From assembly GCA_048938445.1 (NCBI GenBank), contig JBHLME010000112.1, forward strand, positions 1-14,843: a stretch of DNA of 14,843 nt, written 5' to 3'. The notes below the pieces were generated by a model. The model had not been told where the DNA came from. It was given only the letters and a program-made list of their open reading frames with translations, and searched no databases. The DNA is from Promethearchaeota archaeon. Lineage in GTDB: Archaea > Asgardarchaeota > Lokiarchaeia > Sigyniarchaeales > SOKP01. This document shows positions 4,622 to 14,722 of this stretch, piece after piece. Within the stretch, counting starts at the first letter, position 1. Each line of letters begins with the position of its first letter. The position numbers were made by a program, and so were the translations under genes.

Positions 4622-5773
4622 TTATTTAGAAAACATCTTAATCACTTTCATGTATTCTTTTATAGGTATTATCTTCGGATTTCTTATGTATCTAATGGGA
4701 AGAGGAGCATCACATCGAGAGCATAAACTAGAATTTTTTGTCCAATCCTTGAACTCATCGGCATGTGCAGGATATCTACACTCAGGACATATTATGATAC
4801 CTCTACCATTATCCTCCGGATATTTAGGTAATTCGAAACAGAAAATGCATTTAAAATCTTCCTTAGTTAAATTGACTCCTTTTGGTTTTAATTTCGCATA
4901 ATTAGTTTGTGGTTTATTTTTTTGAGTTCTTGGAGTTGCTTTTACTCTAGAAGGTTTTGCTTTAGTTTGCTTTGACCGGTTAGAAGCAGTTGTAGGTCTT
5001 GATGTCCTTCGAGTTGTAGTGCTTTGAGATCTTGATGTTGAAGATCTAGTTCTTGGAGTGGGTACGGTGTTATATTGTTGTCTTCTTGTAACGGGTCTAT
5101 TTTGAGGTCTAACATTTTCATTAATATTCCGTGTACGTGCTGTTATATAATCTTCTGTTATTTGGGGTAATGAAGATCTTTTTCCAAAAATTCCTGGATA
5201 GATCATTAATAATACTATAATAACCAGACTTATTATAAGGATGAGATCAAATGAATAATTAATTGGATTTAATAGAGTTTGAACCTGAGTAAAATAATTA
5301 AAGAAATAAATCCAATACCCTACTATGACAAATATTGTAGAAAATCCAATAAAGAATCCAAATGCTCGAGCACCTACAGATTTTGTTCCGAAATAAACTG
5401 AAATGTATTTTCTAAACATGTAATATAACGAGAAGAGGCTATAAAGTAAGTAAGGAAAACCAAAAAGAATACTCCACAAATTTAGAGATACATTTGAAGC
5501 TCCTAATAGGTTAACTCCTAATAATCCCGTATAATTACTCCAAACAGTAAATAATATACCTATAAATAATGGAAGAAGTATAAAAAAAGCCGTGTTATGG
5601 GGTGAATGATATTCACGATGTTGTTTTATTTTTTTAAAAAACTTAAGAGTAAATATAATCCAGATCCCGATCATGATCCATGAGATTAAGATATTAAAAG
5701 AGGATGCAATAAAAACTCCGTGGATAATCCCTATGATTAAACTTATTATTAAAATAATTACATTCCACATCAA
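4622..5773 (-). CDS. Multi-pass (about 6 TM) membrane protein with a basic S/T/R-rich linker and a C-terminal variant RING finger; putative membrane E3 ligase
   Basis: Six hydrophobic segments in the first ~195 aa, then a low-complexity linker, then C309-x2-C-x16-C-x2-C-x4-H-x2-E-x3-W-x6-C-x2-C354. Co-oriented downstream of E2 and JAMM. AGGAGTGA RBS at 5780-5787; start TTG 5773 or ATG 5770. Confidence 0.75.
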   Translation of the reverse strand: MMWNVIILIISLIIGIIHGVFIASSFNILISWIMIGIWIIFTLKFFKKIKQHREYHSPHNTAFFILLPLFIGILFTVWSNYTGLLGVNLLGASNVSLNLWSILFGFPYLLYSLFSLYYMFRKYISVYFGTKSVGARAFGFFIGFSTIFVIVGYWIYFFNYFTQVQTLLNPINYSFDLILIISLVIIVLLMIYPGIFGKRSSLPQITEDYITARTRNINENVRPQNRPVTRRQQYNTVPTPRTRSSTSRSQSTTTRRTSRPTTASNRSKQTKAKPSRVKATPRTQKNKPQTNYAKLKPKGVNLTKEDFKCIFCFELPKYPEDNGRGIIICPECRYPAHADEFKDWTKNSSLCSRCDAPLPIRYIRNPKIIPIKEYMKVIKMFSK

Positions 5774-5896: not shown

Positions 5897-6724
5897 TCAG
5901 GAATCCTCATCATATTCCAAATACGCGGCTTTACCTTCAATTATGGGATTCATGAAGTTTAGAATGTCAGGAAGCATGCGGACATCTATAGCACCTCGAA
6001 TATTATAAGGAACTGAAAACCACCTCCTTGTTTGTAAATTTGCTCTATATATTTCAAAACCCAAGGATGTACCGTCAATTTGATAAGGATCAACAACAAG
6101 AGCAACCGCTTTTTTCCAAAGTTTTTGATATCTTGCTTGAGTACCCATATCTTCATTACTCATAAAAAGACCATATGAAGGATGGCTATGGTACCACCCA
6201 CAAATAAATAAATCATTTTTCTTGATATCTTTCCAAGCTTTCACGTAATTTTTATAATCCTTTATTTCAGCATAAACCGCATTACCATGACCCATTGGAT
6301 AAGCATCTTCTACAAGGAGGATAGAATCATTATTTTCTAATTTACCTGCAAGGAGTCCAATTACTTCAACCCATTGAGATCTTGGAATTTTAGAATGGGC
6401 ATATTTCAGTGCATGACTGGCGATCTTTAAAATTGCTTTAACAGTGATTTCTGTCTTCATTTTAGGCTTTTTCTTTTGTATCGGATATTTCTCATAGTCC
6501 GGAGTAATATATTCTTCTTTCTGTTTTTGCTCATGATTAATATATTCTTCAACAATTTGTTCCGCGACTACTTCGGGTTCTTCGGGTTTTTTATATTTTT
6601 TTTTATCCTTTTCTTCTGCTTTCAATTCTTCATATATTTCCTCAAGAAGTTCACGTTTTAGCCTTATTTTTTCCATTTTCTTCTTAATCGCTTCCGCTTC
6701 ATTTAATAAATCATCGTAGCTCAT
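5897..6724 (-). CDS. JAMM/MPN+ (Mov34, Rpn11/CSN5-like) metalloisopeptidase with an N-terminal charged coiled-coil extension
   Basis: Intact JAMM motif: E120 (EVIGLLAG), H179-S-H181-x7-S189-x2-D192 (GWYHSHPSYGLFMSNED), followed by ALVVDP. Confidence 0.95.
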   Translation of the reverse strand: MSYDDLLNEAEAIKKKMEKIRLKRELLEEIYEELKAEEKDKKKYKKPEEPEVVAEQIVEEYINHEQKQKEEYITPDYEKYPIQKKKPKMKTEITVKAILKIASHALKYAHSKIPRSQWVEVIGLLAGKLENNDSILLVEDAYPMGHGNAVYAEIKDYKNYVKAWKDIKKNDLFICGWYHSHPSYGLFMSNEDMGTQARYQKLWKKAVALVVDPYQIDGTSLGFEIYRANLQTRRWFSVPYNIRGAIDVRMLPDILNFMNPIIEGKAAYLEYDEDS

Positions 6725-6732
6725 CTAAAGAT

Positions 6733-6737
6733 TCACC
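6733..6737 (-). promoter_or_regulatory. GGTGA ribosome-binding site for the JAMM gene, overlapping the E2 stop codon (translational coupling)
   Basis: Minus strand reads TGG TGA ATCTTTAG ATG: the E2 stop lies within GGTGA, 8 nt before the JAMM ATG. Confidence 0.6.
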
Positions 6738-7260
6738 ACTTTTTATTAGCATATTTTTTCACGAGATGTTTTACTTTTTTCTCGTAAGTACTTGGATTAT
6801 TAATCATTTCTAATGCTGCTTTTTTGTTAAAAACATCTGTAGGATTGATATATTTACCTCGAGTATTGAACATGGCAATAATTGCTTGAATAACAGTTGT
6901 AATTGTTTTTGATGGGCTCCATCCTCCCTTCTTACCAATCAAGCTAGGATCTACGAGTGCCAAGCAAATATTACGCTGACCTTTATATTCTTGAGGCTTA
7001 GGCCAAAAATTTGGATGCCAAATTGGTGTATGCAGGCGCACAAATGGAGGTTTACTAGGATATTCTGGAGGAAACTGGACTTCAAGACGAAATAATCCTC
7101 CCTGAAATGCCGTACCATTTGGACCTTTTAACGTGATAGCAAGATGGTCTATAGCCTTGCTTTTTGGATTGAATGGCTTTAATTGTTCAATTTTACCATC
7201 CTTTAACATTTTTTTTAATCTCGAAAATTCTTGCGATACTCTACTATTTCTCGCGCTCAT
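6733..7260 (-). CDS. Ubiquitin-conjugating enzyme E2 (UBC fold)
   Basis: GP.GT.FQGG.F.L.V.FP.EYP.KPP.V.L.TPIWHPN, active-site ICL (Cys99), WSPS.TI..V..AI, NP.D.FN..AA. Confidence 0.96.
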   Translation of the reverse strand: MSARNSRVSQEFSRLKKMLKDGKIEQLKPFNPKSKAIDHLAITLKGPNGTAFQGGLFRLEVQFPPEYPSKPPFVRLHTPIWHPNFWPKPQEYKGQRNICLALVDPSLIGKKGGWSPSKTITTVIQAIIAMFNTRGKYINPTDVFNKKAALEMINNPSTYEKKVKHLVKKYANKKW

Positions 7261-7576
7261 AAAATCATATCTATTTTTTTTATTTTAATATAATAATATA
7301 AAGAAATTATTATAAAGTAATTTGGAATAATTTTGAAGTATTTTATAATTGCTTAAATCCAAAAAATAATGATTCTAAAGATATTATTATTGATTAAAGT
7401 CAATGATTTTTTATGTTTTTTTATTGTAATTATCCAATGAGTTAAATTTAGGATAATCCATAATTATATTATTTAATATTAAAATTATATACTTAATCAC
7501 ATATATTAGTTCGATAATCGACTAAGATATGATATTTTCAAATATAATAATTAATTTTTGGGAGATAAAGAAATAT

Positions 7577-7589: not shown

Positions 7590-8405
7590 ATAACTGAGGA
7601 GATTATTACCTATAGGAATAGTAAATTGCTAAAATCTGAAGTTGATATAATTAAGGAAATAGAGGAGGAACTTGGAATAGAATCGACATCTAGACCAGAT
7701 GCTTTTGATCTATTCGTCCCTTTACAATTTATTGCTGAAGATTATCGAATAAAGCATATCACTCTACATAAGTATCCATTTTCCTCATTCCCTGAAGCCA
7801 TAACTAAGCTTATTTATCTTGAAACCTTGAATTTTACTTCTACGGAATTAGAAAATCTTCCTAAATCGATTGGATACCTTAAAAATCTTAAAATTTTAGC
7901 GATAGACAATGGTAAATTATCAGATCTTCCCAATTCTTTAAAAAAGATTGATTCGATCACAACCTTAATGCTTCAAAATAATAATTTTACTCACATACCA
8001 GAAGTAATTACCGAATTAGAATCACTTGTATATTTATATCTTTCAGGTAATCAGTTAACATCGCTTCCTGAAAATATAGGGAAGCTTAAATCTCTTAAAG
8101 AATTAAATCTTAGTTGGAATAAACTTTCAAGTCTTCCTTCCTCAATAGGAAATCTTTCTTCACTTGAAAATTTAACTTTATCAAAAAATCAATTATCTGA
8201 GATACCTGATTCAATAGGTAAACTTGCTTCTCTTAAAGAAATATGGATTCATGAAAATATTTTAGAATCTTTACCCGAATCAATAGTAAATATAAAATCC
8301 CTTAAGAGTTTGCAAATAGATGGTAATCCAATTCACGATAAAACAAGTTCTAAAGTCAAGATTATATTAGAGAAACTCAAGAATATGGGTGTTGAGCTCG
8401 ATTAG
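7590..8405 (+). CDS. Leucine-rich repeat protein (about 8-9 repeats of 23 aa); ORF track starts it at TTG 7626, probable start ATA 7590
   Basis: Repeats of LxxLxxLxLxxNxLxxLPxxIGx, e.g. LKSLKELNLSWNKLSSLPSSIGN and LSSLENLTLSKNQLSEIPDSIGK; ends with a GNP cap and a short helix. No catalytic domain visible. Confidence 0.93.
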   Translation: MTEEIITYRNSKLLKSEVDIIKEIEEELGIESTSRPDAFDLFVPLQFIAEDYRIKHITLHKYPFSSFPEAITKLIYLETLNFTSTELENLPKSIGYLKNLKILAIDNGKLSDLPNSLKKIDSITTLMLQNNNFTHIPEVITELESLVYLYLSGNQLTSLPENIGKLKSLKELNLSWNKLSSLPSSIGNLSSLENLTLSKNQLSEIPDSIGKLASLKEIWIHENILESLPESIVNIKSLKSLQIDGNPIHDKTSSKVKIILEKLKNMGVELD

Positions 8406-8418
8406 AAACAAAAACTAA

Positions 8419-9642
8419 TCAATTAATTCTTAAAGTTAATAAAATCTCACCTTTTTTAAATCCTGCAACGGTAATGAGCTCTAGATCTCTTAATCCATTT
8501 TTTTTAATTGACTGTTCCAGATCAATCTCCTTTATATCGTTGAAATCAATTGTTGTCAGGATTGGTACCATTTCTGGATCAAGGTCATGACCTCGATCTA
8601 CTAGGGCATCAACAAGTTTTTGGCAAGGTTCATTACGACTTGTATGAATATCTTCGCGTACGACCTGCTCTCCACATTGAGTGCAATTAATTCTTCTTTT
8701 TTTTTCAATCGAATAAAATTTCATGGTCATTCCATTGAAAACTGTATAAGTTCTAATTGGTTCTCCTAAAGCATTATTTCCACGCAACCAATGAAGTATT
8801 TTAATGGTTTCATGTGATTGAATCGCAGATATAATAGCATTTATGGTAATAATTCCTGGATCATGCCTATCTATTATTTTTATTATATCTGCTTTGGAAA
8901 AGGGGGGTGGAAAATTATGTTTTTCTGATAAATCATTAGCTATTTTTTGTATGAACTCAATATCCTTGATTTTTGTTGGATCTGGATCTTTCTTGAATTT
9001 ATCCTGAAATGCCATATTTCCCTTAAAAACACAATGTACTCTCTTGCGTGGAATTCCAACTACCGTGCAAGCTGCCATATCATCATCTTCAACAGAAGGT
9101 AAAGGATTGCATTCAAAACATGCATTCTCATATGGAAAGATGGTATAAAAATGTCCATGATAACCTGAGACACCTCCATCTATCAAGGGCTTCTTAAAAC
9201 GCACGGCTTGGGCGTTTAAATTAAGTCTTGCATTCATCGAATCTAATCCACCAATGATTACATCTGCAGCATTATAGATTGCTGGATCAAGACGTTCTAA
9301 GGACGTGCTATACCCTTCAATGGTGATATTTGGATTGATCTTCCTTAACATTTTTGCAGCAGCAAGTGCTTTTGGTTGTCCCATTTTGGCATCAATAAAT
9401 AATATTTGACGATTTAGGTTTGAGTGTTCGATCACGTCTAAATCAACCAAATCGAGATGTCCAACACCCAACATCGCTAAATTTTTAGCTATTTCACACC
9501 CTAGACCGCCTACACCTGCAATTAACACTCTTGAATTTTTTACAATTGACTGAGACCATCCTTCAAGTCTAAACTGTCGATTGTATAATTCTCTCTCTTT
9601 TGCGGTTAAATCCTCACTAAAAAAATCAGAATCATTTTCCAA
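8419..9642 (-). CDS. Ubiquitin-like activating enzyme E1 (ThiF/MoeB adenylation domain, Uba3/Uba2-type catalytic Cys insert, probable C-terminal ubiquitin-fold domain)
   Basis: YNRQ.RL, GVGGLG nucleotide loop, D.D.IE.SNLNRQ, GLDS..AR, Zn pairs CFEC and CTQC, catalytic-like ACTVVGIPRKRVHC (Cys192), PGIITINAIISA. TTG start with GGTGA at 9648-9652. Confidence 0.95.
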   Translation of the reverse strand: MENDSDFFSEDLTAKERELYNRQFRLEGWSQSIVKNSRVLIAGVGGLGCEIAKNLAMLGVGHLDLVDLDVIEHSNLNRQILFIDAKMGQPKALAAAKMLRKINPNITIEGYSTSLERLDPAIYNAADVIIGGLDSMNARLNLNAQAVRFKKPLIDGGVSGYHGHFYTIFPYENACFECNPLPSVEDDDMAACTVVGIPRKRVHCVFKGNMAFQDKFKKDPDPTKIKDIEFIQKIANDLSEKHNFPPPFSKADIIKIIDRHDPGIITINAIISAIQSHETIKILHWLRGNNALGEPIRTYTVFNGMTMKFYSIEKKRRINCTQCGEQVVREDIHTSRNEPCQKLVDALVDRGHDLDPEMVPILTTIDFNDIKEIDLEQSIKKNGLRDLELITVAGFKKGEILLTLRIN

Positions 9643-9724: not shown

Positions 9725-10072
9725 TTAAAAAATTCCTGCGGTACTTGCAGGGATTAGAAGAACATCATCTCCATCAGCAACGCCATAATCGCTTAATGGA
9801 TTGCTTTCATCCATAGTAACACCACCATGTGATAAGTGAAAGTCATTAGGATTCAAACCAAAGATATTTCCAACAGTCTTCTTTACATCGCCTACCATAT
9901 TTCCATCATTAACGGTAAGTTTTTGTTTCTTTTCTCCAGGACCGATTGTAGACATGAAAAAAACAGAAATTTTTCTTCCTCCTGAGGGAATCTTGGATGC
10001 AGGAGTTTTTGAACTGATTGGTTCAGGCTCTTCTAATTCTTCTAGTTCTTCATCAAATTCTTCAAAACTCAT
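9725..10072 (-). CDS. Ubiquitin-like modifier A (beta-grasp), acidic N-terminal tail, C-terminus IPASTAG-IF (precursor form)
   Basis: Ubiquitin-like pattern V.D.K..V…F.L…G..MD…LSDYGV.DGD.V.L; immediately upstream of E1 on the same strand; AGGAG RBS at 10081-10085. Confidence 0.9.
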   Translation of the reverse strand: MSFEEFDEELEELEEPEPISSKTPASKIPSGGRKISVFFMSTIGPGEKKQKLTVNDGNMVGDVKKTVGNIFGLNPNDFHLSHGGVTMDESNPLSDYGVADGDDVLLIPASTAGIF

Positions 10073-10223
10073 GTAAATCTCTCCTTTTTTTTTTAATTTT
10101 CAATATACTTTTTTAATAAAATGACATCAAAATGATATTATAAAACCCTCTGGAAAGAAAGTGAAGTTTTTTCGGGAACTAATATTTTAAGTGATGATTA
10201 ATGAAATGTTTAAATACGGATCT

Positions 10224-10259
10224 TATATATAAAGGAGAAGCATATTAATATATATAAAG
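10224..10259. promoter_or_regulatory. Two copies of TATATATAAAG; candidate TATA boxes in the divergent modifier A/wHTH intergenic region
   Basis: Identical 11-mers at 10224-10234 and 10249-10259; they read CTTTATATATA on the minus strand, which fits an archaeal TATA box. Confidence 0.4.
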
Positions 10260-10332
10260 AATTTTAATTTGTCTTAGAGAGATAATAGAAAAGAAATAAC
10301 TGAAGAAATTAACTTAATAAAAGTATATTTAA

Positions 10333-11007
10333 ATGGATTCTACGAATAATATAGATTCTGTCGTGTTAGACTTAATAAAGGAATATTTATCCAAAAAAAC
10401 GTTCTTTTCAATAAAAGATCTTATTGATTATATAAATAATAGGGTAAAGATGAATCCCTACATAAATAGAAACAGAATCGAACTTGTCATTAAATCCTTA
10501 ATTAAAAAGAAAGAAATCATTCCAGGTACCAAGTTAATGAAAAATAATATAATAGACAATCAAACTAGAAAAAAAATATTTAATTATATAAAAAAAAATC
10601 CTGCAATAAACATCAATGAAATAATGAAACATCAAGAAATTGGAAGTAATCAAGCATTATGGCACTTATCAGCATTGGAGAAATTTCAATTTATCCGGTC
10701 AAAGAAGATTGGAAACCGTAGGATTTTTTTTATAATTGGCTCAAATCCGGAATTTGATGACATATATTATTACTTAAAGATGGAAATTGTCAATGAAATA
10801 ATTAAATTCATGGACAAAAATAAAAAAGCTCTAAAAATAACTGATATTGCTGATGGTTTAAAAAAAAACCACAATGTTATTAAAAAGTACCTAAATATTT
10901 TGGATGAACTCAATTTATTAGAAATAGAAAAAGAAAAATCTAGAGATACCTATAAAATAGATCAAGAAAGATATTCAGAAGTGATTAAACTTGTCAGTAA
11001 AAAATAA
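10333..11007 (+). CDS. Tandem winged helix-turn-helix transcriptional regulator
   Basis: N.TRKKIFNYIKKNP.I.INEI…WHLS.LEKF.FI.S.KIGN and a second HTH, LKITDIADGLKKNHNVIKKYL..L.EL.LL; a third wHTH-like segment is possible at the N-terminus. Confidence 0.85.
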   Translation: MDSTNNIDSVVLDLIKEYLSKKTFFSIKDLIDYINNRVKMNPYINRNRIELVIKSLIKKKEIIPGTKLMKNNIIDNQTRKKIFNYIKKNPAININEIMKHQEIGSNQALWHLSALEKFQFIRSKKIGNRRIFFIIGSNPEFDDIYYYLKMEIVNEIIKFMDKNKKALKITDIADGLKKNHNVIKKYLNILDELNLLEIEKEKSRDTYKIDQERYSEVIKLVSKK

Positions 11008-11063
11008 ACATGAACACTTCAAGTTTATGCCAATGGAATTTAAATTATTAATTAAACATATGT

Positions 11064-11900
11064 ATGTTGATAAAAAAATTGTTTAAAATTATGGAAAAAA
11101 AGTATAAAATTATAAGCGTTATAACAGTTTATGTTATATCAATCATCGTGTATGTTCTGTTTTTCTCACAGTTCATTCCTTACCTTAATTTGATTGTCAT
11201 AGGTAGTTTAACTGTGATCTCTACTGGTACTTTATATGCCATAATTCATGAATCAAACAACCAATATAAGAGAGAAAAGAAACTTAAAGTCTTAAAGCAA
11301 ACTAAATTAGAACTTGAAAAGTCAAGCGAATTTACAAAGAAATCTATTCAAGAATCGCCAGAGGTAATTGGAGAATATCTTGAAGCCTTTCCTTATATCG
11401 AAGACTATGTTGAATCTGATGTAACATATGAACAAGTTCCAATTATAAATGAGATCATCTTTTCAGACTTAAATCAAGAAGTATTGAAAAAGATTAATTT
11501 GTTAAATTTATCACAAATAGAAAAACTCCAATTTATTAGGGAACTTCTATATTATGAACCGGAAGAAAGAGATAATTTGATTGAAAACATGTTAGAAAAT
11601 CGAGACAAAATAGATGAGGATGTTATTTATTCAGTACCTTTAAAAACTCTTGAATTAGCAGATAAATTCAGGGTACATGTAATATCATTAGTAGAACCAG
11701 GAGAAAAGAAGAAAATAATAATTATTGAATCACTTGATATGATTATTGAAATAAAGAAAAAGGTTGGAGTTTTATTTGATTATAATCTAGAAGATTTTCA
11801 TCTAACTACGGGGGGTATAATGTTAGATGAAACTCTTCAAATAAAAGATTATTTTATCGAAGATGATGATGAGATTGTTCTAATTCCCATCCGTAAATAA
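11064..11900 (+). CDS. Membrane protein (2 N-terminal TM helices, helical middle) with a C-terminal ubiquitin-like domain paralogous to the two free modifiers but lacking the terminal Gly
   Basis: Hydrophobic IISVITVYVISIIVYVLFF and LIVIGSLTVISTGTLYAII; C-terminal PGEKK…IKKKVG.LF….EDFHL..GG..LDE…DY.I.D.D.I.LIPIRK. Start may be ATG 11091. Confidence 0.85.
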   Translation: MLIKKLFKIMEKKYKIISVITVYVISIIVYVLFFSQFIPYLNLIVIGSLTVISTGTLYAIIHESNNQYKREKKLKVLKQTKLELEKSSEFTKKSIQESPEVIGEYLEAFPYIEDYVESDVTYEQVPIINEIIFSDLNQEVLKKINLLNLSQIEKLQFIRELLYYEPEERDNLIENMLENRDKIDEDVIYSVPLKTLELADKFRVHVISLVEPGEKKKIIIIESLDMIIEIKKKVGVLFDYNLEDFHLTTGGIMLDETLQIKDYFIEDDDEIVLIPIRK

Positions 11901-11919
11901 ATTAAATGAATTAAGAGAT

Positions 11920-12261
11920 CTATCCTGCAATACTAGCAGGAATTAATAAAATATCATCACCATCTTTAACATTATATTCTATTAGAGGATTATTTTCATC
12001 CATTGTAATCCCACCGTGCGATAAATGAAAATCTAATGGATTCAATGCAAATAAATTACCAACTGTTTGCTTAATATCTTCAACTAGATTACCAGTATAA
12101 ACTACTAATTTATGCTTTTTTTCACCAGGTCCTATTGTTGACATGAAATAAAGTGCAATTTTTTTTCCTTCGTTGGTAGGAACTTTAGATTTTAATCCTT
12201 CTGATTCATCATGTTCCAGATCTTCATCAAGATCTTCATCAAATTCATCATCAAAATCCAC
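11920..12261 (-). CDS. Ubiquitin-like modifier B, acidic N-terminal tail, C-terminus IPASIAG-stop (mature form)
   Basis: 59 of 82 residues identical to modifier A over the folded domain (manual count). GTG start preceded by AGGATGTGA. Confidence 0.9.
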   Translation of the reverse strand: MDFDDEFDEDLDEDLEHDESEGLKSKVPTNEGKKIALYFMSTIGPGEKKHKLVVYTGNLVEDIKQTVGNLFALNPLDFHLSHGGITMDENNPLIEYNVKDGDDILLIPASIAG

Positions 12262-12457
12262 GTTTTATTCACATCCTTTAATTATAAGTTATTAGATTCA
12301 TGTGATTATTAGCTATAATATAAATAAGACTAAAAGTATATAAATAAATTCCATGCTTAAATTATTCTTCAATATTATGCCAAATGGTTTTTTTTAAGAT
12401 TAAAAAGATTTAATCTTTAGATGATAAAATTAATCAAATATTTTTGTGATATATTAA

Positions 12458-13657
12458 ATGATGAAGGATAAAATACCTCCTAAGTCTCAAATTCAAGAGA
12501 AGATTCCCAAAGAACAGTTAGAACAAATTCATGATAAGAAACTGTTAAAAAAAATCAAAGAAGAAAGAATGAAACTTAGTAAAGAAAAGGAAAATTGGGA
12601 AAAAGTTATAAAAAAAATGGAGGATTATCAAGGAAATATTAGGGATCTTGAAAAAAAAAGGAAAGAAAGAGAAATTGAAATTAGAGCACTTCTAGAGCAA
12701 CGTGATACTTTAAAAGATCAGTTATCAAGAACCCAAAAAAGTATAGAAGGCCAAAAGAAACGAATTGAAGATGAAAAGAGGCAATATATAAATACACTTC
12801 GTGAAAAAAATTATGAATTGGATCAGAAAAATACTGAATTAGAAAAATACAAACAAGAATTATTACGACTTAGAGAAGATATACAAAACGAAAAACAAAC
12901 TTTAGATATAGAAAAGGAAAAAGCTAAATCTCGTATTAAAGAAATTAAAACAAAAATTCCTGGGATGGAACGTAGGGAGGATTTGCTAAAGGATAATATT
13001 AGTACTTTAGAAAAAAAATTAAATGGATTAAAAAGGGATTATAGAGATCTTAAAAATGAAAAAGCTAACTTAATTAAAGATATAAATGACATGAAACAAA
13101 AAATTGCTGAAGAAGCATACAGGTTAAATGACCAAAAACGAAAGATCGAAGAACAAAAAAAAAGATTAAAATATAAAGACGACGATTTGGCACGAAAAGC
13201 ACATGATATCGAAAAGAAAAAGGATAAATTAGATAGAATAAAAGATAAGACTCAAAAAGACGTTCGAGACTTAGAAAAAGAGAAACAAAATTATCAATCT
13301 CAATTATCTAATTTAAAAAAAAAATTACCTCAATTAGAAGATAAAAAGTATGATTTAGAAAGCAAGAGAAGTATGCTAGAAGATGATATTAAAAGATTAA
13401 ATAATGAATACAAGGATTTAGATAATCAATTAAAAAAGATTGAAAATAAAACTAGAAATGAAGAGAAAGATTTAGAAAGAGAAAGAAGGCTAATTCAAGA
13501 TGAAAAAAATAAAATAAGGAAAGAAAGAGAAAAATTAGATAAAGATAGGCGAGCATTTGAAAAAGAAAAAAGAGAATTTCAAGAAATGGTTAGAAAAACA
13601 TTAAAATCTAAACAACCACCAAAGCAACAAATAAAATTTAAAACTCCTTCAAAATAG
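12458..13657 (+). CDS. Long coiled-coil protein of unknown function with an internal 123-aa repeat
   Basis: 399 aa, K/E/R/Q-rich heptads throughout, short Pro-containing head and tail, no ATPase motif or TM segment. Confidence 0.8.
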   Translation: MMKDKIPPKSQIQEKIPKEQLEQIHDKKLLKKIKEERMKLSKEKENWEKVIKKMEDYQGNIRDLEKKRKEREIEIRALLEQRDTLKDQLSRTQKSIEGQKKRIEDEKRQYINTLREKNYELDQKNTELEKYKQELLRLREDIQNEKQTLDIEKEKAKSRIKEIKTKIPGMERREDLLKDNISTLEKKLNGLKRDYRDLKNEKANLIKDINDMKQKIAEEAYRLNDQKRKIEEQKKRLKYKDDDLARKAHDIEKKKDKLDRIKDKTQKDVRDLEKEKQNYQSQLSNLKKKLPQLEDKKYDLESKRSMLEDDIKRLNNEYKDLDNQLKKIENKTRNEEKDLERERRLIQDEKNKIRKEREKLDKDRRAFEKEKREFQEMVRKTLKSKQPPKQQIKFKTPSK

Positions 13658-13666
13658 TAACTTCTT

Positions 13667-14722
13667 GTGAGCATTTCTAAAATTGATTTTATTAAAGGTA
13701 TTGAAGGAGATTATGTAGAGACAAAAAAAAACCATCTCTTTTTTGATATTAAAGGCGTTCATCATCCAAAAGATAGGAAAATTTGTTTTATACGATTTCA
13801 TCCCGATCCACTTGGCGATCGAGAAAAAAATGGAATAAAATATAAAAAAATATATGATTTGCGTGAAAGATATTCTTATTTGAAAAGAGAATATCCCGAA
13901 TATTTATTCTATTCCGAACAATTAGATTTGGAGTTACAAGGAGTAAAAAATGAAGATATTTTAAAAATTTATACTCCACGAGATTATTATGCGGAATTAC
14001 TTAAAAAATCCGACTTGTCCCGATTGGAAAAATGTTCTCTTGAATTATGTGAACTTTTTATTTCTGATGGAAATCTCCCAAAAGGATCTATTGGAATCAC
14101 CGGATCTCCAATGATTGGATTAAATAAAGAGATTTCGGATATAGATATAATGATCTATGGTACTGAAACGAGTTTAGATTTTCAAAAATCCCTTTCAGAA
14201 ATAATAAAGGATAGTAACAATTTTTGTAGGGAATATGCACTACAAGAATATCAAGTACATTATGATTGGAGAGTCGGAGGTTCAGATATACCTTTCGATA
14301 AATTTCTTCAATGTGAAAGGAGAAAACTCCACCAAGGTATGTATAAAGGTTTCGAATTTTTTATAAGATACTTAAAAAGTCCGAAAGACTGGCAAGGTGG
14401 GTATTATGATTATAAATATAAAAATCTTGGAAGGATTAAAATTAGAGCTAATATTTTGGACTCCACTGATTCCATATTTACACCTTGTTCGTATGAAATT
14501 GAAGTCTCTAAAATTTTAGAAAATGAGTCAAGTAAAAAAAATATTAAAAAGCAAGAAATCCTTAAAGTAAACTCGTTTAGAGGTAGATTTTGTGAACACG
14601 CTATAAAAGGAGAAGATGTAATAATTGAAGGAAAATTGGAGCGCGTTCTTTATAAAAATACTGAGAAATATTATCGTATTTTATTAAGCGATCAAGCTCG
14701 CGATAAAATGATACGTGCTTGA
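13667..14722 (+). CDS. Archaeal predicted nucleotidyltransferase (Pol-beta superfamily, COG1665-like)
   Basis: IGITGS..IGL….SDIDI.IYG catalytic signature; N-terminal EGD.VET…F.IKG..HP…F.R; C-terminal SFRGRFCE.A..GE.V..EGKLE. GTG start 9 nt after the coiled-coil stop. Confidence 0.8.
   Translation: MSISKIDFIKGIEGDYVETKKNHLFFDIKGVHHPKDRKICFIRFHPDPLGDREKNGIKYKKIYDLRERYSYLKREYPEYLFYSEQLDLELQGVKNEDILKIYTPRDYYAELLKKSDLSRLEKCSLELCELFISDGNLPKGSIGITGSPMIGLNKEISDIDIMIYGTETSLDFQKSLSEIIKDSNNFCREYALQEYQVHYDWRVGGSDIPFDKFLQCERRKLHQGMYKGFEFFIRYLKSPKDWQGGYYDYKYKNLGRIKIRANILDSTDSIFTPCSYEIEVSKILENESSKKNIKKQEILKVNSFRGRFCEHAIKGEDVIIEGKLERVLYKNTEKYYRILLSDQARDKMIRA

Follow-up and report, generated by a model that had tools for sequence, protein, structure and literature searches.

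A gene at positions 11064-11900 (plus strand) of a 14,843-nt contig from a Promethearchaeota archaeon encodes a protein, here called TM-Ubl, in which an N-terminal transmembrane (TM) hairpin is joined through a conserved helical module to a ubiquitin-like (Ubl) domain. The contig, C32, was analyzed in its entirety and is referred to as the window; its assembly comprises 4.63 Mb in 256 contigs, with a completeness of 96.5% and a contamination of 8.2%. The list of open reading frames (ORFs) and their Pfam matches identifies in the window a Loki-type (Promethearchaeota) ubiquitin-like gene cluster, with two free modifiers (UblA and UblB), the enzymes E1, E2, and JAMM, a multi-pass membrane RING-type (TM-RING) protein, and a tandem winged-helix (HTH) protein encoded next to TM-Ubl. 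The explanation that we consider best overall, at roughly even odds, is that TM-Ubl is a membrane tether for the putative HTH regulator and that its dead-end Ubl domain links this tether to the tagging enzymes. Structure prediction and gene linkage point to the adjacent HTH protein, not E1, E2, JAMM, or the TM-RING protein, as the best-supported partner of TM-Ubl, and TM-Ubl probably connects the membrane with control of the tagging system.

A word-indexed protein search returned 64 homologues of TM-Ubl, one identical and the rest 41 to 66% identical, nearly all of them 262 to 282 amino acids long; those named among the 64 are Promethearchaeota or Lokiarchaeota. Fifty of these were aligned with the query, after omission of 14 identical, partial, or near-duplicate rows. 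In addition, 83 genome-contig stretches encode a TM-Ubl relative, of which 80 loci were kept, many of them ended by contig ends. The ORF and stop codon assigned in the first-pass annotation stand, but the start at 11064 probably does not: Met10, at 11091, is the start in most orthologues, the identical database protein has 269 amino acids, and the Atlas record begins at residue 10, so that translation probably starts at Met10 to give a protein of 269 residues, judging from these sequences. With residues numbered along the 278-residue ORF, the gene and its parts are as follows.

11064-11900, plus strand: TM-Ubl gene, 278-residue ORF, stop codon TAA at 11898-11900
11109-11246, plus strand: membrane hairpin of TM1 (residues 16-34) and TM2 (residues 43-61, both by Kyte-Doolittle), joined by a loop of about 8 residues
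11247-11363, plus strand: basic, poorly conserved tether, residues ~62-100, variable and gapped in the alignment
11364-11648, plus strand: conserved helical module with a Y-x-P-P linker, residues ~101-195, delimited by alignment conservation
11655-11897, plus strand: ubiquitin-fold domain, residues 198-278, ending in LIPIRK without Ala-Gly

The two N-terminal TM helices proposed at first reading coincide with the hydrophobic segments and with helices at residues 2-34 and 38-70 in an AlphaFold model computed from the 51 family members. What had been described there as a helical spacer is indeed helical in part, yet it is not a plain spacer: residues 61-106, with a predicted local distance difference test (pLDDT) score below 50, would form a disordered basic tether, and the helices that come next, at residues 110-178, belong to the conserved domain. 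Membrane topology was assessed by counting charges in the 29 of 51 family members that showed exactly two hydrophobic segments at a crude threshold, the remaining 22 giving one or three segments because TM2 is only mildly hydrophobic. Lys and Arg residues average 4.0 in the N terminus of about 9 residues, 0.3 in the loop of about 7 residues, and 7.1 in the 25 residues past TM2. By the positive-inside rule, this distribution places both termini in the cytoplasm and therefore makes the Ubl domain cytoplasmic, not extracellular, as the first-pass annotation needed it to be. We are close to certain that TM-Ubl is a non-conjugatable, cytoplasmic, membrane-anchored Ubl protein.

The C-terminal domain of TM-Ubl is 35% identical to UblA and 34% identical to UblB, and the three have PGEKK, DFHL, GG, and LIP in common, whereas TM-Ubl stops after LIPIRK; the alignment thus bears out the earlier observation that the domain keeps the modifier motifs and ends in IPIRK without Gly. 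In the AlphaFold2 model, residues 201-275 form a beta-grasp domain with a pLDDT of about 90. Its top Foldseek match in the Protein Data Bank (PDB) is the Caldiarchaeum ubiquitin chain 6fno_D (E 2e-6, TM-score by target 0.79), the matches at E <= 0.001 number at least 500 and are ubiquitin-family chains throughout, and comparison with ubiquitin, ISG15, and archaeal ubiquitin gives a probability of 1.00 and TM-scores by target of 0.79 to 0.93. The Pfam family PF00240 matches TM-Ubl alone with an E-value of 0.0059 and 16.8 bits, under the cut-off of 25.4 bits; many TM-Ubl orthologues have a precomputed PF00240 match, and a profile search with the TM-Ubl domain meets ubiquitin chains in register. 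As modelled, the domain is a true ubiquitin fold and a member of the ubiquitin superfamily.

The loss of the Ala-Gly end can be followed through the family. Tails were parsed for 75 of the 80 loci, the exceptions being L053 and L059, which have IIP in place of L[IV]P and whose tails are likewise basic, and three others. None of the 75 ends in [ST]-A-G, and a stray Gly, out of register, occurs in four; in the 50 relatives aligned with the query, the family C terminus is LIPSRK followed by one to a few mostly basic residues. The free Ubls encoded at the same loci, by contrast, end in AS[T/I/V]AG, with or without a short extension, in all 68 upstream and all 77 downstream copies (145/145), and the AG end is kept in 18 of 19 more distant proteins that were fetched with a C-terminal Ubl fused to other domains. 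The 8421-nt contig of a second sample differs at three positions across 11000-12300, none within the TM-Ubl gene, and reproduces the stop; in a diverged contig of a third study, the TM-Ubl stop is at the same place. The truncation or sequencing error that the first-pass annotation had kept in view is ruled out by these tails and by the shared stop of the second sample's contig. Going by these sequences, the missing Ala-Gly end is a family trait and not an error. As this end is lost, E1 should be unable to activate the Ubl domain of TM-Ubl, as had been proposed at first reading; the domain is not a conjugatable type I modifier and fits the definition of an integral type II UBL domain.

In a tree of the Ubl domains, all 76 TM-Ubl domains group in one clade (support 1.0), whose stem measures 1.82 substitutions per site; from this topology, the domain appears to have been derived a single time from the modifier of the cluster itself, with later loss of the Ala-Gly end. 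Of some 78 positions in the alignment, 21 have an identical residue in tethered and free Ubls at 85% conservation or more, among them the PGEK loop between beta1 and beta2, the segment aligned to ubiquitin residues 41-47, and beta5; the motifs F-x-L-S-S-G-G and I-x-L-I-P, like the PGEK loop, are common to the TM-Ubl family and the free Ubls. At a further 13 positions, the tethered Ubls conserve one residue and the free Ubls another, including (from free to tethered) T to L209, G to E211, K to T216, K to I218, and L to A272. In the profile register, the position equivalent to His68 of ubiquitin is Ala in the family, Val in the window copy, and Leu in the free Ubls, and at the position equivalent to Ile44, both groups have Ser, the window copy having Thr. 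This pattern suggests that the Ubl domain of TM-Ubl is under purifying selection of its own.

The window copy (P0001) also keeps the free-Ubl-like K216 and H246, where the family has Thr and Leu, respectively, and differs from the family consensus at H205, I207, V272, and I276. The copy of this genus may be an early-branching or less diverged form. Within the Ubl coding region, we also noted a 17-nt inverted repeat (11790-11838, plus strand; 94% complementary, with a 15-nt loop), whose arms are the codons of E-D-F-H-L-T on one side and of L-D-E-T-L on the other.

The helical module is found well beyond TM-Ubl. In an exhaustive representative search, 57 proteins matched at E <= 0.001, with residues ~96-181 recurring elsewhere alone (72 to 107 amino acids), in tandem, or at the C terminus of long membrane proteins that often bear an 8-Cys/His zinc finger just before it. 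In the genome that carries the window, a module profile matches five other ORFs of 690 to 1896 amino acids and, more weakly, a sixth on contig C112. In each of the five, an N-terminal hydrophobic segment is followed by a large and presumably external region, after which one more TM helix leads into a cytoplasmic tail with the module at its end; a zinc finger is present in three of the five examined. Module-bearing receptor-like proteins are thus encoded in this genome on C206, C8, C80, C168, C127, and C112, and in the database they include P0086, P0104, P0114, and others; the same profile finds no module in the TM-RING protein. When modelled alone, the module has a mean pLDDT of 68.8 and a confident three-helix core, with helices at 85 to 92. 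No Pfam match was found for it in P0001 or in its stand-alone or receptor forms, no PDB sequence matched below E 0.89, Foldseek returned no PDB match at E <= 0.001 (the best being generic three-helix bundles at E > 2), and Atlas returned unnamed clusters only. Its recurrence in these different sequence settings suggests an undescribed, mobile domain of about 90 amino acids.

A UBA/CUE-like, Ubl-binding role for the module was considered, and no support for it was found in the sequence and structure searches made. The zinc finger that precedes the module on receptor-like proteins follows the pattern C-x2-H-x11-C-x2-C-x4-C-x2-C-x9-10-C-x2-C and has weak B-box and zinc-ribbon Pfam matches only. 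It is carried by proteins on C206, C168, and C127 of the genome studied and by P0086, P0094, P0104, P0106, P0114, P0118, and P0121.

One line of evidence for a link between the module and the HTH protein is a predicted complex, for which TM-Ubl residues 96-278 were folded together with the HTH protein (73 alignment rows) from our own alignments. The ipSAE score was 0.79 in each of three runs and 0.01 in the best of three controls; in calibration, 58 of 80 solved complexes and 2 of 110 mismatched pairs scored that high, counts that are approximate given the use of our own alignments. At least 97% of contacts were common to the runs, and the partner had a pLDDT of at least 86. The confident interface joins TM-Ubl residues 102-201, that is, the module and the Y-x-P-P linker, to HTH residues 19-130, and it includes HTH residues 104-119, which correspond in the HTH_24 register to the first winged helix's recognition helix. 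As no solved structure resembles the module, it is unlikely that the complex owes its score to a memorized structure. On the HTH side, the 50-residue interface takes in 23 of 42 invariant positions (odds ratio 6.9, p 2e-7), and the enrichment holds when the test is limited to residues 1-135 (odds ratio 4.3, p 2.5e-4). On balance, we judge it reasonably likely that the module binds the HTH protein.

The genetic evidence is drawn from gene order and from gene content. The 80 loci share their synteny, with TM-Ubl as a fixed member, which answers the question of co-occurrence posed at first reading. Gene order is near-invariant, running from a GTP-cyclohydrolase-like gene (plus strand) through the membrane RING-type, JAMM, E2, E1, and Ubl genes (all minus) and on to the HTH and TM-Ubl genes (plus), a second Ubl gene (minus), and coiled-coil and nucleotidyltransferase (NTase)-like genes (plus). 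Matches were found for the HTH gene at 77 of the 80 loci (the other three start inside the TM-Ubl gene), for the coiled-coil gene at 73, the NTase-like gene at 67, E1 at 66, E2 at 61, JAMM at 57, and the RING-type gene at 56, the last a lower bound because many loci end at contig ends. A convergent free Ubl gene lies within 150 nt of TM-Ubl in 71 of 76 assessable loci, at a median gap of 41 nt. In the window, TM-Ubl likewise sits between the two free modifiers, and 19 nt (11901-11919) separate its stop from the minus-strand stop of UblB, which begins at 11920, in agreement with the position and gap given at first reading. Ubl-domain matches in the genome number only three, all inside the window. 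The cluster genes other than TM-Ubl are listed below.

4622-5773, minus strand: multi-pass membrane RING-type (TM-RING) protein with a Cys-rich end, no family match
5897-6724, minus strand: JAMM (JAB, E 1.4e-12)
6733-7260, minus strand: E2 (UQ_con, E 3e-25)
7626-8405, plus strand: leucine-rich repeat (LRR) gene, 259 amino acids (LRR_14, E 9e-33)
8419-9642, minus strand: E1 (ThiF, E 5.2e-57)
9725-10072, minus strand: free modifier UblA, ending in STAGIF (STAG-IF)
10333-11007, plus strand: tandem winged-helix (HTH) gene, 224 amino acids (HTH_24 at 76-117, HTH_5 at 154-196)
11920-12261, minus strand: free modifier UblB, ending in SIAG, convergent on the TM-Ubl gene
12458-13657, plus strand: coiled-coil gene with a Lys/Glu-rich product
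13667-14722, plus strand: NTase-like protein, 351 amino acids (weak nucleotidyltransferase match, PF01909, E 3e-4)

Across the phylum, TM-Ubl matches at E <= 1e-10 occur in 175 of 400 genomes. When a full-length TM-Ubl is defined by a best E-value of 1e-60 or lower, as we read the table of matches, it is present in about 92 of the 400, all within four genera of the window's own family (3/6, 4/10, 50/54, and 35/42 genomes), and the weaker matches outside these four genera cover the Ubl part only. Orthologues of the HTH protein, defined by E <= 1e-70, were found in 93 of the 135 genomes of the family. Our cross-reading of the two tables finds both genes in 90 of these genomes, TM-Ubl only in 2, the HTH gene only in 3, and neither in 40, so that presence is concordant in 130 of 135; four of the five discordant genomes have partial matches resembling contig ends. 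As the 135 genomes are kin, these counts show linkage and not independent co-evolution.

Comparable pairs recur elsewhere in the genome. A tblastn search with the HTH protein against its own genome detects paralogues at 25 to 34% identity. Each of the other six module ORFs is directly followed by such a paralogue on the same strand, and further HTH paralogues stand apart from any module gene. Among 12 additional genomes of the family, all three TM-Ubl loci have an HTH gene upstream, and an HTH paralogue lies directly downstream of 10 of 21 distinct module places that do not belong to TM-Ubl. The identity of the HTH protein is itself suggestive, as its first winged helix matches the ArsR/SmtB (E 1.3e-8) and SdpR (E 2.6e-7) families of NCBIfam, both under the cut-offs.

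Several of our results weigh against a tether for the HTH protein, or against a part in it for the Ubl domain. In the predicted complex, no TM-Ubl residue from 202 on is named at the interface, although this does not exclude contact. The ipSAE score is the model's own confidence, obtained with our own alignments, and the test of interface conservation draws on the same alignments as the folding and is not independent of them; on the module side, the enrichment is borderline, with 15 of 22 conserved positions at the interface (p 0.051). The remaining 11 of the 21 module places have no HTH paralogue within 1.5 kb, and the modules most like that of TM-Ubl fall among them; the module is therefore not always paired with an HTH gene in cis. 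The interface signature W110-H111-L112...F118 is kept in all 14 HTH paralogues of the genome, with or without a module neighbour, and therefore does not discriminate paired from unpaired paralogues. Lastly, at L033, which is on a closed chromosome, TM-Ubl is complete, only the C-terminal 77 residues of the HTH protein are still encoded, and genes for E1, E2, and JAMM are missing from the surrounding 10 kb. L033 thus offers a naturally occurring setting in which TM-Ubl would have to function without the genes that usually flank it; a free-Ubl-like segment was also observed there inside a 519-residue ORF about 7 kb upstream.

With these points in mind, a regulatory tether could operate as follows. 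The N-in/C-in hairpin and the flexible basic tether of about 40 residues would hold TM-Ubl on the inner face of the membrane, where the module and linker, according to the model, would close around the N-terminal half of the HTH protein and cover the recognition helix in its ArsR-like first winged helix, leaving the Ubl core free beside the bound HTH protein. TM-Ubl may thereby act as a membrane tether, or anti-factor, for the HTH regulator, in analogy with SdpI, which is proposed to sequester SdpR. The free Ubl could in turn be a contact point for E2, RING, JAMM, or a Ubl reader, acting on or reporting the tethered complex, and transcription of the cluster might thereby be coupled to the state of the Ubl system or of the membrane. 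We propose this full regulatory logic, a role for the Ubl domain included, only tentatively, as somewhat less probable than its opposite.

In eukaryotes, ubiquitin-dependent mobilization of membrane-tethered transcription factors is known from the Spt23/Mga2 and Nrf1 types. It could be speculated, as an extension that we regard as rather unlikely, that the TM-Ubl/HTH pair is a feedback sensor in which tagging, de-tagging, or extraction releases or destroys a membrane-parked regulator; the pair would then be a prokaryotic forerunner of such mobilization, and the receptor-like module/HTH pairs would form a wider Asgard signalling family.

Among other explanations, the one that fares best is a scaffold like HERP or Usa1, close to the membrane docking site suggested at first reading, in which the anchored Ubl domain docks on or organizes the TM-RING protein and recruits factors for quality control resembling endoplasmic reticulum-associated degradation (ERAD). 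The list of parts is indeed that of HERP, a membrane hairpin with a cytosolic, non-conjugatable UBL; a TM-RING-type gene lies in the same cluster at the 56 loci noted above, and the Ubl domain retains the PGEK loop and the two motifs of the free Ubls. However, the block of HTH, TM-Ubl, Ubl, coiled-coil, and NTase-like genes persists at L033, L042, and L065, where E1, E2, JAMM, and RING genes are absent or broken nearby; at L042 and L065, this right-hand block is present without an intact left-hand block. The TM-RING protein, moreover, matches nothing in the Pfam or NCBIfam libraries and lacks the module, and the tightly linked, predicted partner of TM-Ubl is the HTH protein. We consider a scaffold improbable.

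Less probable still is a decoy or inhibitor, as the first-pass annotation had also entertained, in which a tethered dead-end Ubl competes for E1, E2, or JAMM and so damps or localizes conjugation. The 21 positions of about 78 with the same residue in tethered and free Ubls would suit such mimicry. The 13 switched positions, on the other hand, point to a retuned surface and not to a mimic, the tail that E1 would grip is replaced by a basic S-R-K-x-K tail, and a decoy leaves both the conserved module and the pairing with the HTH gene without a role. We give a similarly small chance to an anchored acceptor or primer, in which the Ubl domain is modified on a retained lysine by E2~Ubl and either builds anchored chains or marks the tether, or the HTH protein bound to it, for removal. 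Lysines invariant in free Ubls are kept in the family at K215 (88%) and K231 (100%), and the Ubl domain adjoins the predicted HTH-binding segment; other lysines that are near-invariant in free Ubls are lost, K216 being Thr in 96% of the family and K218 being Ile in 93%. An acceptor would be compatible with a tether. That the gene is an artefact or in decay, as it would be if a modifier copy with a truncation or frameshift had become joined accidentally to a membrane ORF, we regard as vanishingly improbable; nothing was found in its favour, and it is contradicted by 64 homologues of the same length, 80 syntenic loci, the conserved LIPSRK with its basic tail in a single clade under constraint, and the identical gene in the second sample's contig with a stop shared by the diverged one.

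A DNA element that recurs upstream of several units of the cluster is a further point in favour of the tether. This element, CTTCAA-N6-KCCAA, emerged from k-mer counts in the intergenic spacers across loci, and at no more than one substitution it has 201 matches in the 80 loci against 50 in shuffled loci. Of these matches, 114 are at two fixed places: the UblA/HTH spacer, oriented toward UblA (67/80 loci), and about 50 nt before the position of TM-Ubl residue 1 (47/80 loci). Its copies in the window are listed below.

11016-11033, plus strand: ACTTCAA-N2-TTAT-K-CCAA, 0 mismatches, 48 nt upstream of the ATG at 11064 and 75 nt upstream of the ATG at 11091
7322-7339, minus strand: element with 0 mismatches, in front of E2, whose start at 7260 is about 62 nt away
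12366-12383, plus strand: element with 1 mismatch, in front of the coiled-coil gene, whose start at 12458 is about 75 nt away; also found as a direct repeat
10150-10169, minus strand: degenerate element in the UblA/HTH divergent spacer, with 5 mismatches to the 20-nt consensus of other loci, assigned by eye at low confidence

Searching the window with the longer pattern at up to three mismatches gives five matches where 1.18 are expected, a number reached in 3 of 200 shuffles. A repeat search of 10073-12457, in which most of the 17 direct and 50 inverted pairs were AT-rich, did not single out the element. The shared element may be an operator or a plain promoter motif, going by its sequence and placement. 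A second conserved run of about 14 nt, containing ACACTTTAG, was observed in 58 of 71 UblB/coiled-coil spacers of related loci; it has no match in the window at up to two mismatches.

Some features of the neighbouring genes may be noted in their own right. The LRR gene sits on the opposite strand between E2 and E1, splitting the enzyme operon, and an LRR match occurs at 1 of the 80 loci. The coiled-coil and NTase-like genes lie downstream of the second Ubl gene in 73 and 67 of the 80 loci, respectively, and keep their linkage to the HTH, TM-Ubl, and Ubl genes even without the E1/E2/JAMM block; the NTase-like protein is 56 to 62% identical across the loci inspected. Beyond the cluster, many Asgard proteins (P0074-P0115) fuse unrelated N-terminal domains, such as a zinc ribbon with a coiled coil, a P-loop ATPase-like part, or tandem Ubl repeats, to a C-terminal Ubl that keeps the STAG end. 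Judged by their sequences, these would be ready-made conjugatable fusions or polyprotein-like precursors.

Asgard archaea hold the closest prokaryotic relatives of the eukaryotic ubiquitin system. If our reading of TM-Ubl is correct, the split between transferable tags and built-in Ubl adaptors would already be present in an archaeal lineage, as would the membrane anchoring of a Ubl. The TM-Ubl/HTH pair would provide a first handle on the regulation of such a cluster, and the module would add a new protein module and a family of candidate receptor/regulator pairs, with two small, soluble parts open to experiment in vitro. This significance extends to four genera of one family, and the functional steps are all inferred. 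Published work on Asgard ubiquitin systems covers, in the portions accessible to us, the tags, E1, E2, RING, and JAMM, and a link to ESCRT (PMC9192718; bioRxiv 2023.07.25.550441). In the accessible text of this literature (PMC9192718, bioRxiv 2023.07.25.550441, and PMC12962969), supplementary orthologue tables aside, we found no description of the TM-Ubl family or its module.

Placing TM-Ubl alongside known systems gives additional context. UblA and UblB of the same cluster and the ubiquitin of Caldiarchaeum subterraneum (6fno/6fj7) have the ubiquitin fold in common with it, the two cluster modifiers at the 34 to 35% identity given above; TM-Ubl differs from UblA and UblB in lacking the Ala-Gly end, in lying behind a hairpin and a module, in its 13 switched positions, and in forming a long-stemmed clade.

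HERP (HERPUD1), its yeast counterpart Usa1, and TMUB1 are integral-membrane UBL-domain proteins of eukaryotic ERAD. Like TM-Ubl, they combine a membrane anchor with a cytosolic UBL that is never conjugated, in a system with a membrane RING-type protein. The order of domains is reversed in TM-Ubl, however, and its module is predicted to bind a winged-helix protein; outside the UBL domain, no homology to HERP or Usa1 was found, and no Pfam or NCBIfam family other than ubiquitin was matched. The analogy with HERP and TMUB1 drawn in the first-pass annotation consequently holds for the list of parts, an anchor and a cytosolic, non-conjugatable UBL, and fails for homology and domain order. MUB/UBL3 proteins are prenyl-anchored ubiquitin-fold proteins with a C-terminal CAAX lipid. 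They too present a ubiquitin fold at the cytoplasmic face of the membrane that is not a transferable tag, but the anchor of TM-Ubl is an N-terminal helical hairpin and not a CAAX lipid; no CAAX box is found in TM-Ubl, which ends in IRK without Cys, and the family tails are S-R-K and basic residues.

For the pairing with a regulator, the closest likeness is to SdpI of Bacillus subtilis, a membrane protein encoded beside the ArsR-type autorepressor SdpR, for which membrane sequestration has been proposed (PMC2910880). Both pairs have adjacent genes, and the HTH protein has the weak ArsR/SmtB and SdpR matches and a recognition helix within its predicted interface; membrane-bound anti-sigma factors and their sigma factors bear a looser likeness. 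TM-Ubl differs from SdpI in that the two are not homologous, in that its binding part is predicted to be a soluble helical module, and in that its tether bears a Ubl domain. Finally, the receptor-like Asgard membrane proteins have the C-terminal module in common with TM-Ubl and, in the genome studied, an adjacent HTH paralogue. They differ in that their extracellular parts are large, only one TM helix precedes the tail, and a zinc finger is often present, as well as in the absence of a Ubl domain and in the position of the HTH gene, which is downstream of these receptor-like genes and upstream of TM-Ubl.

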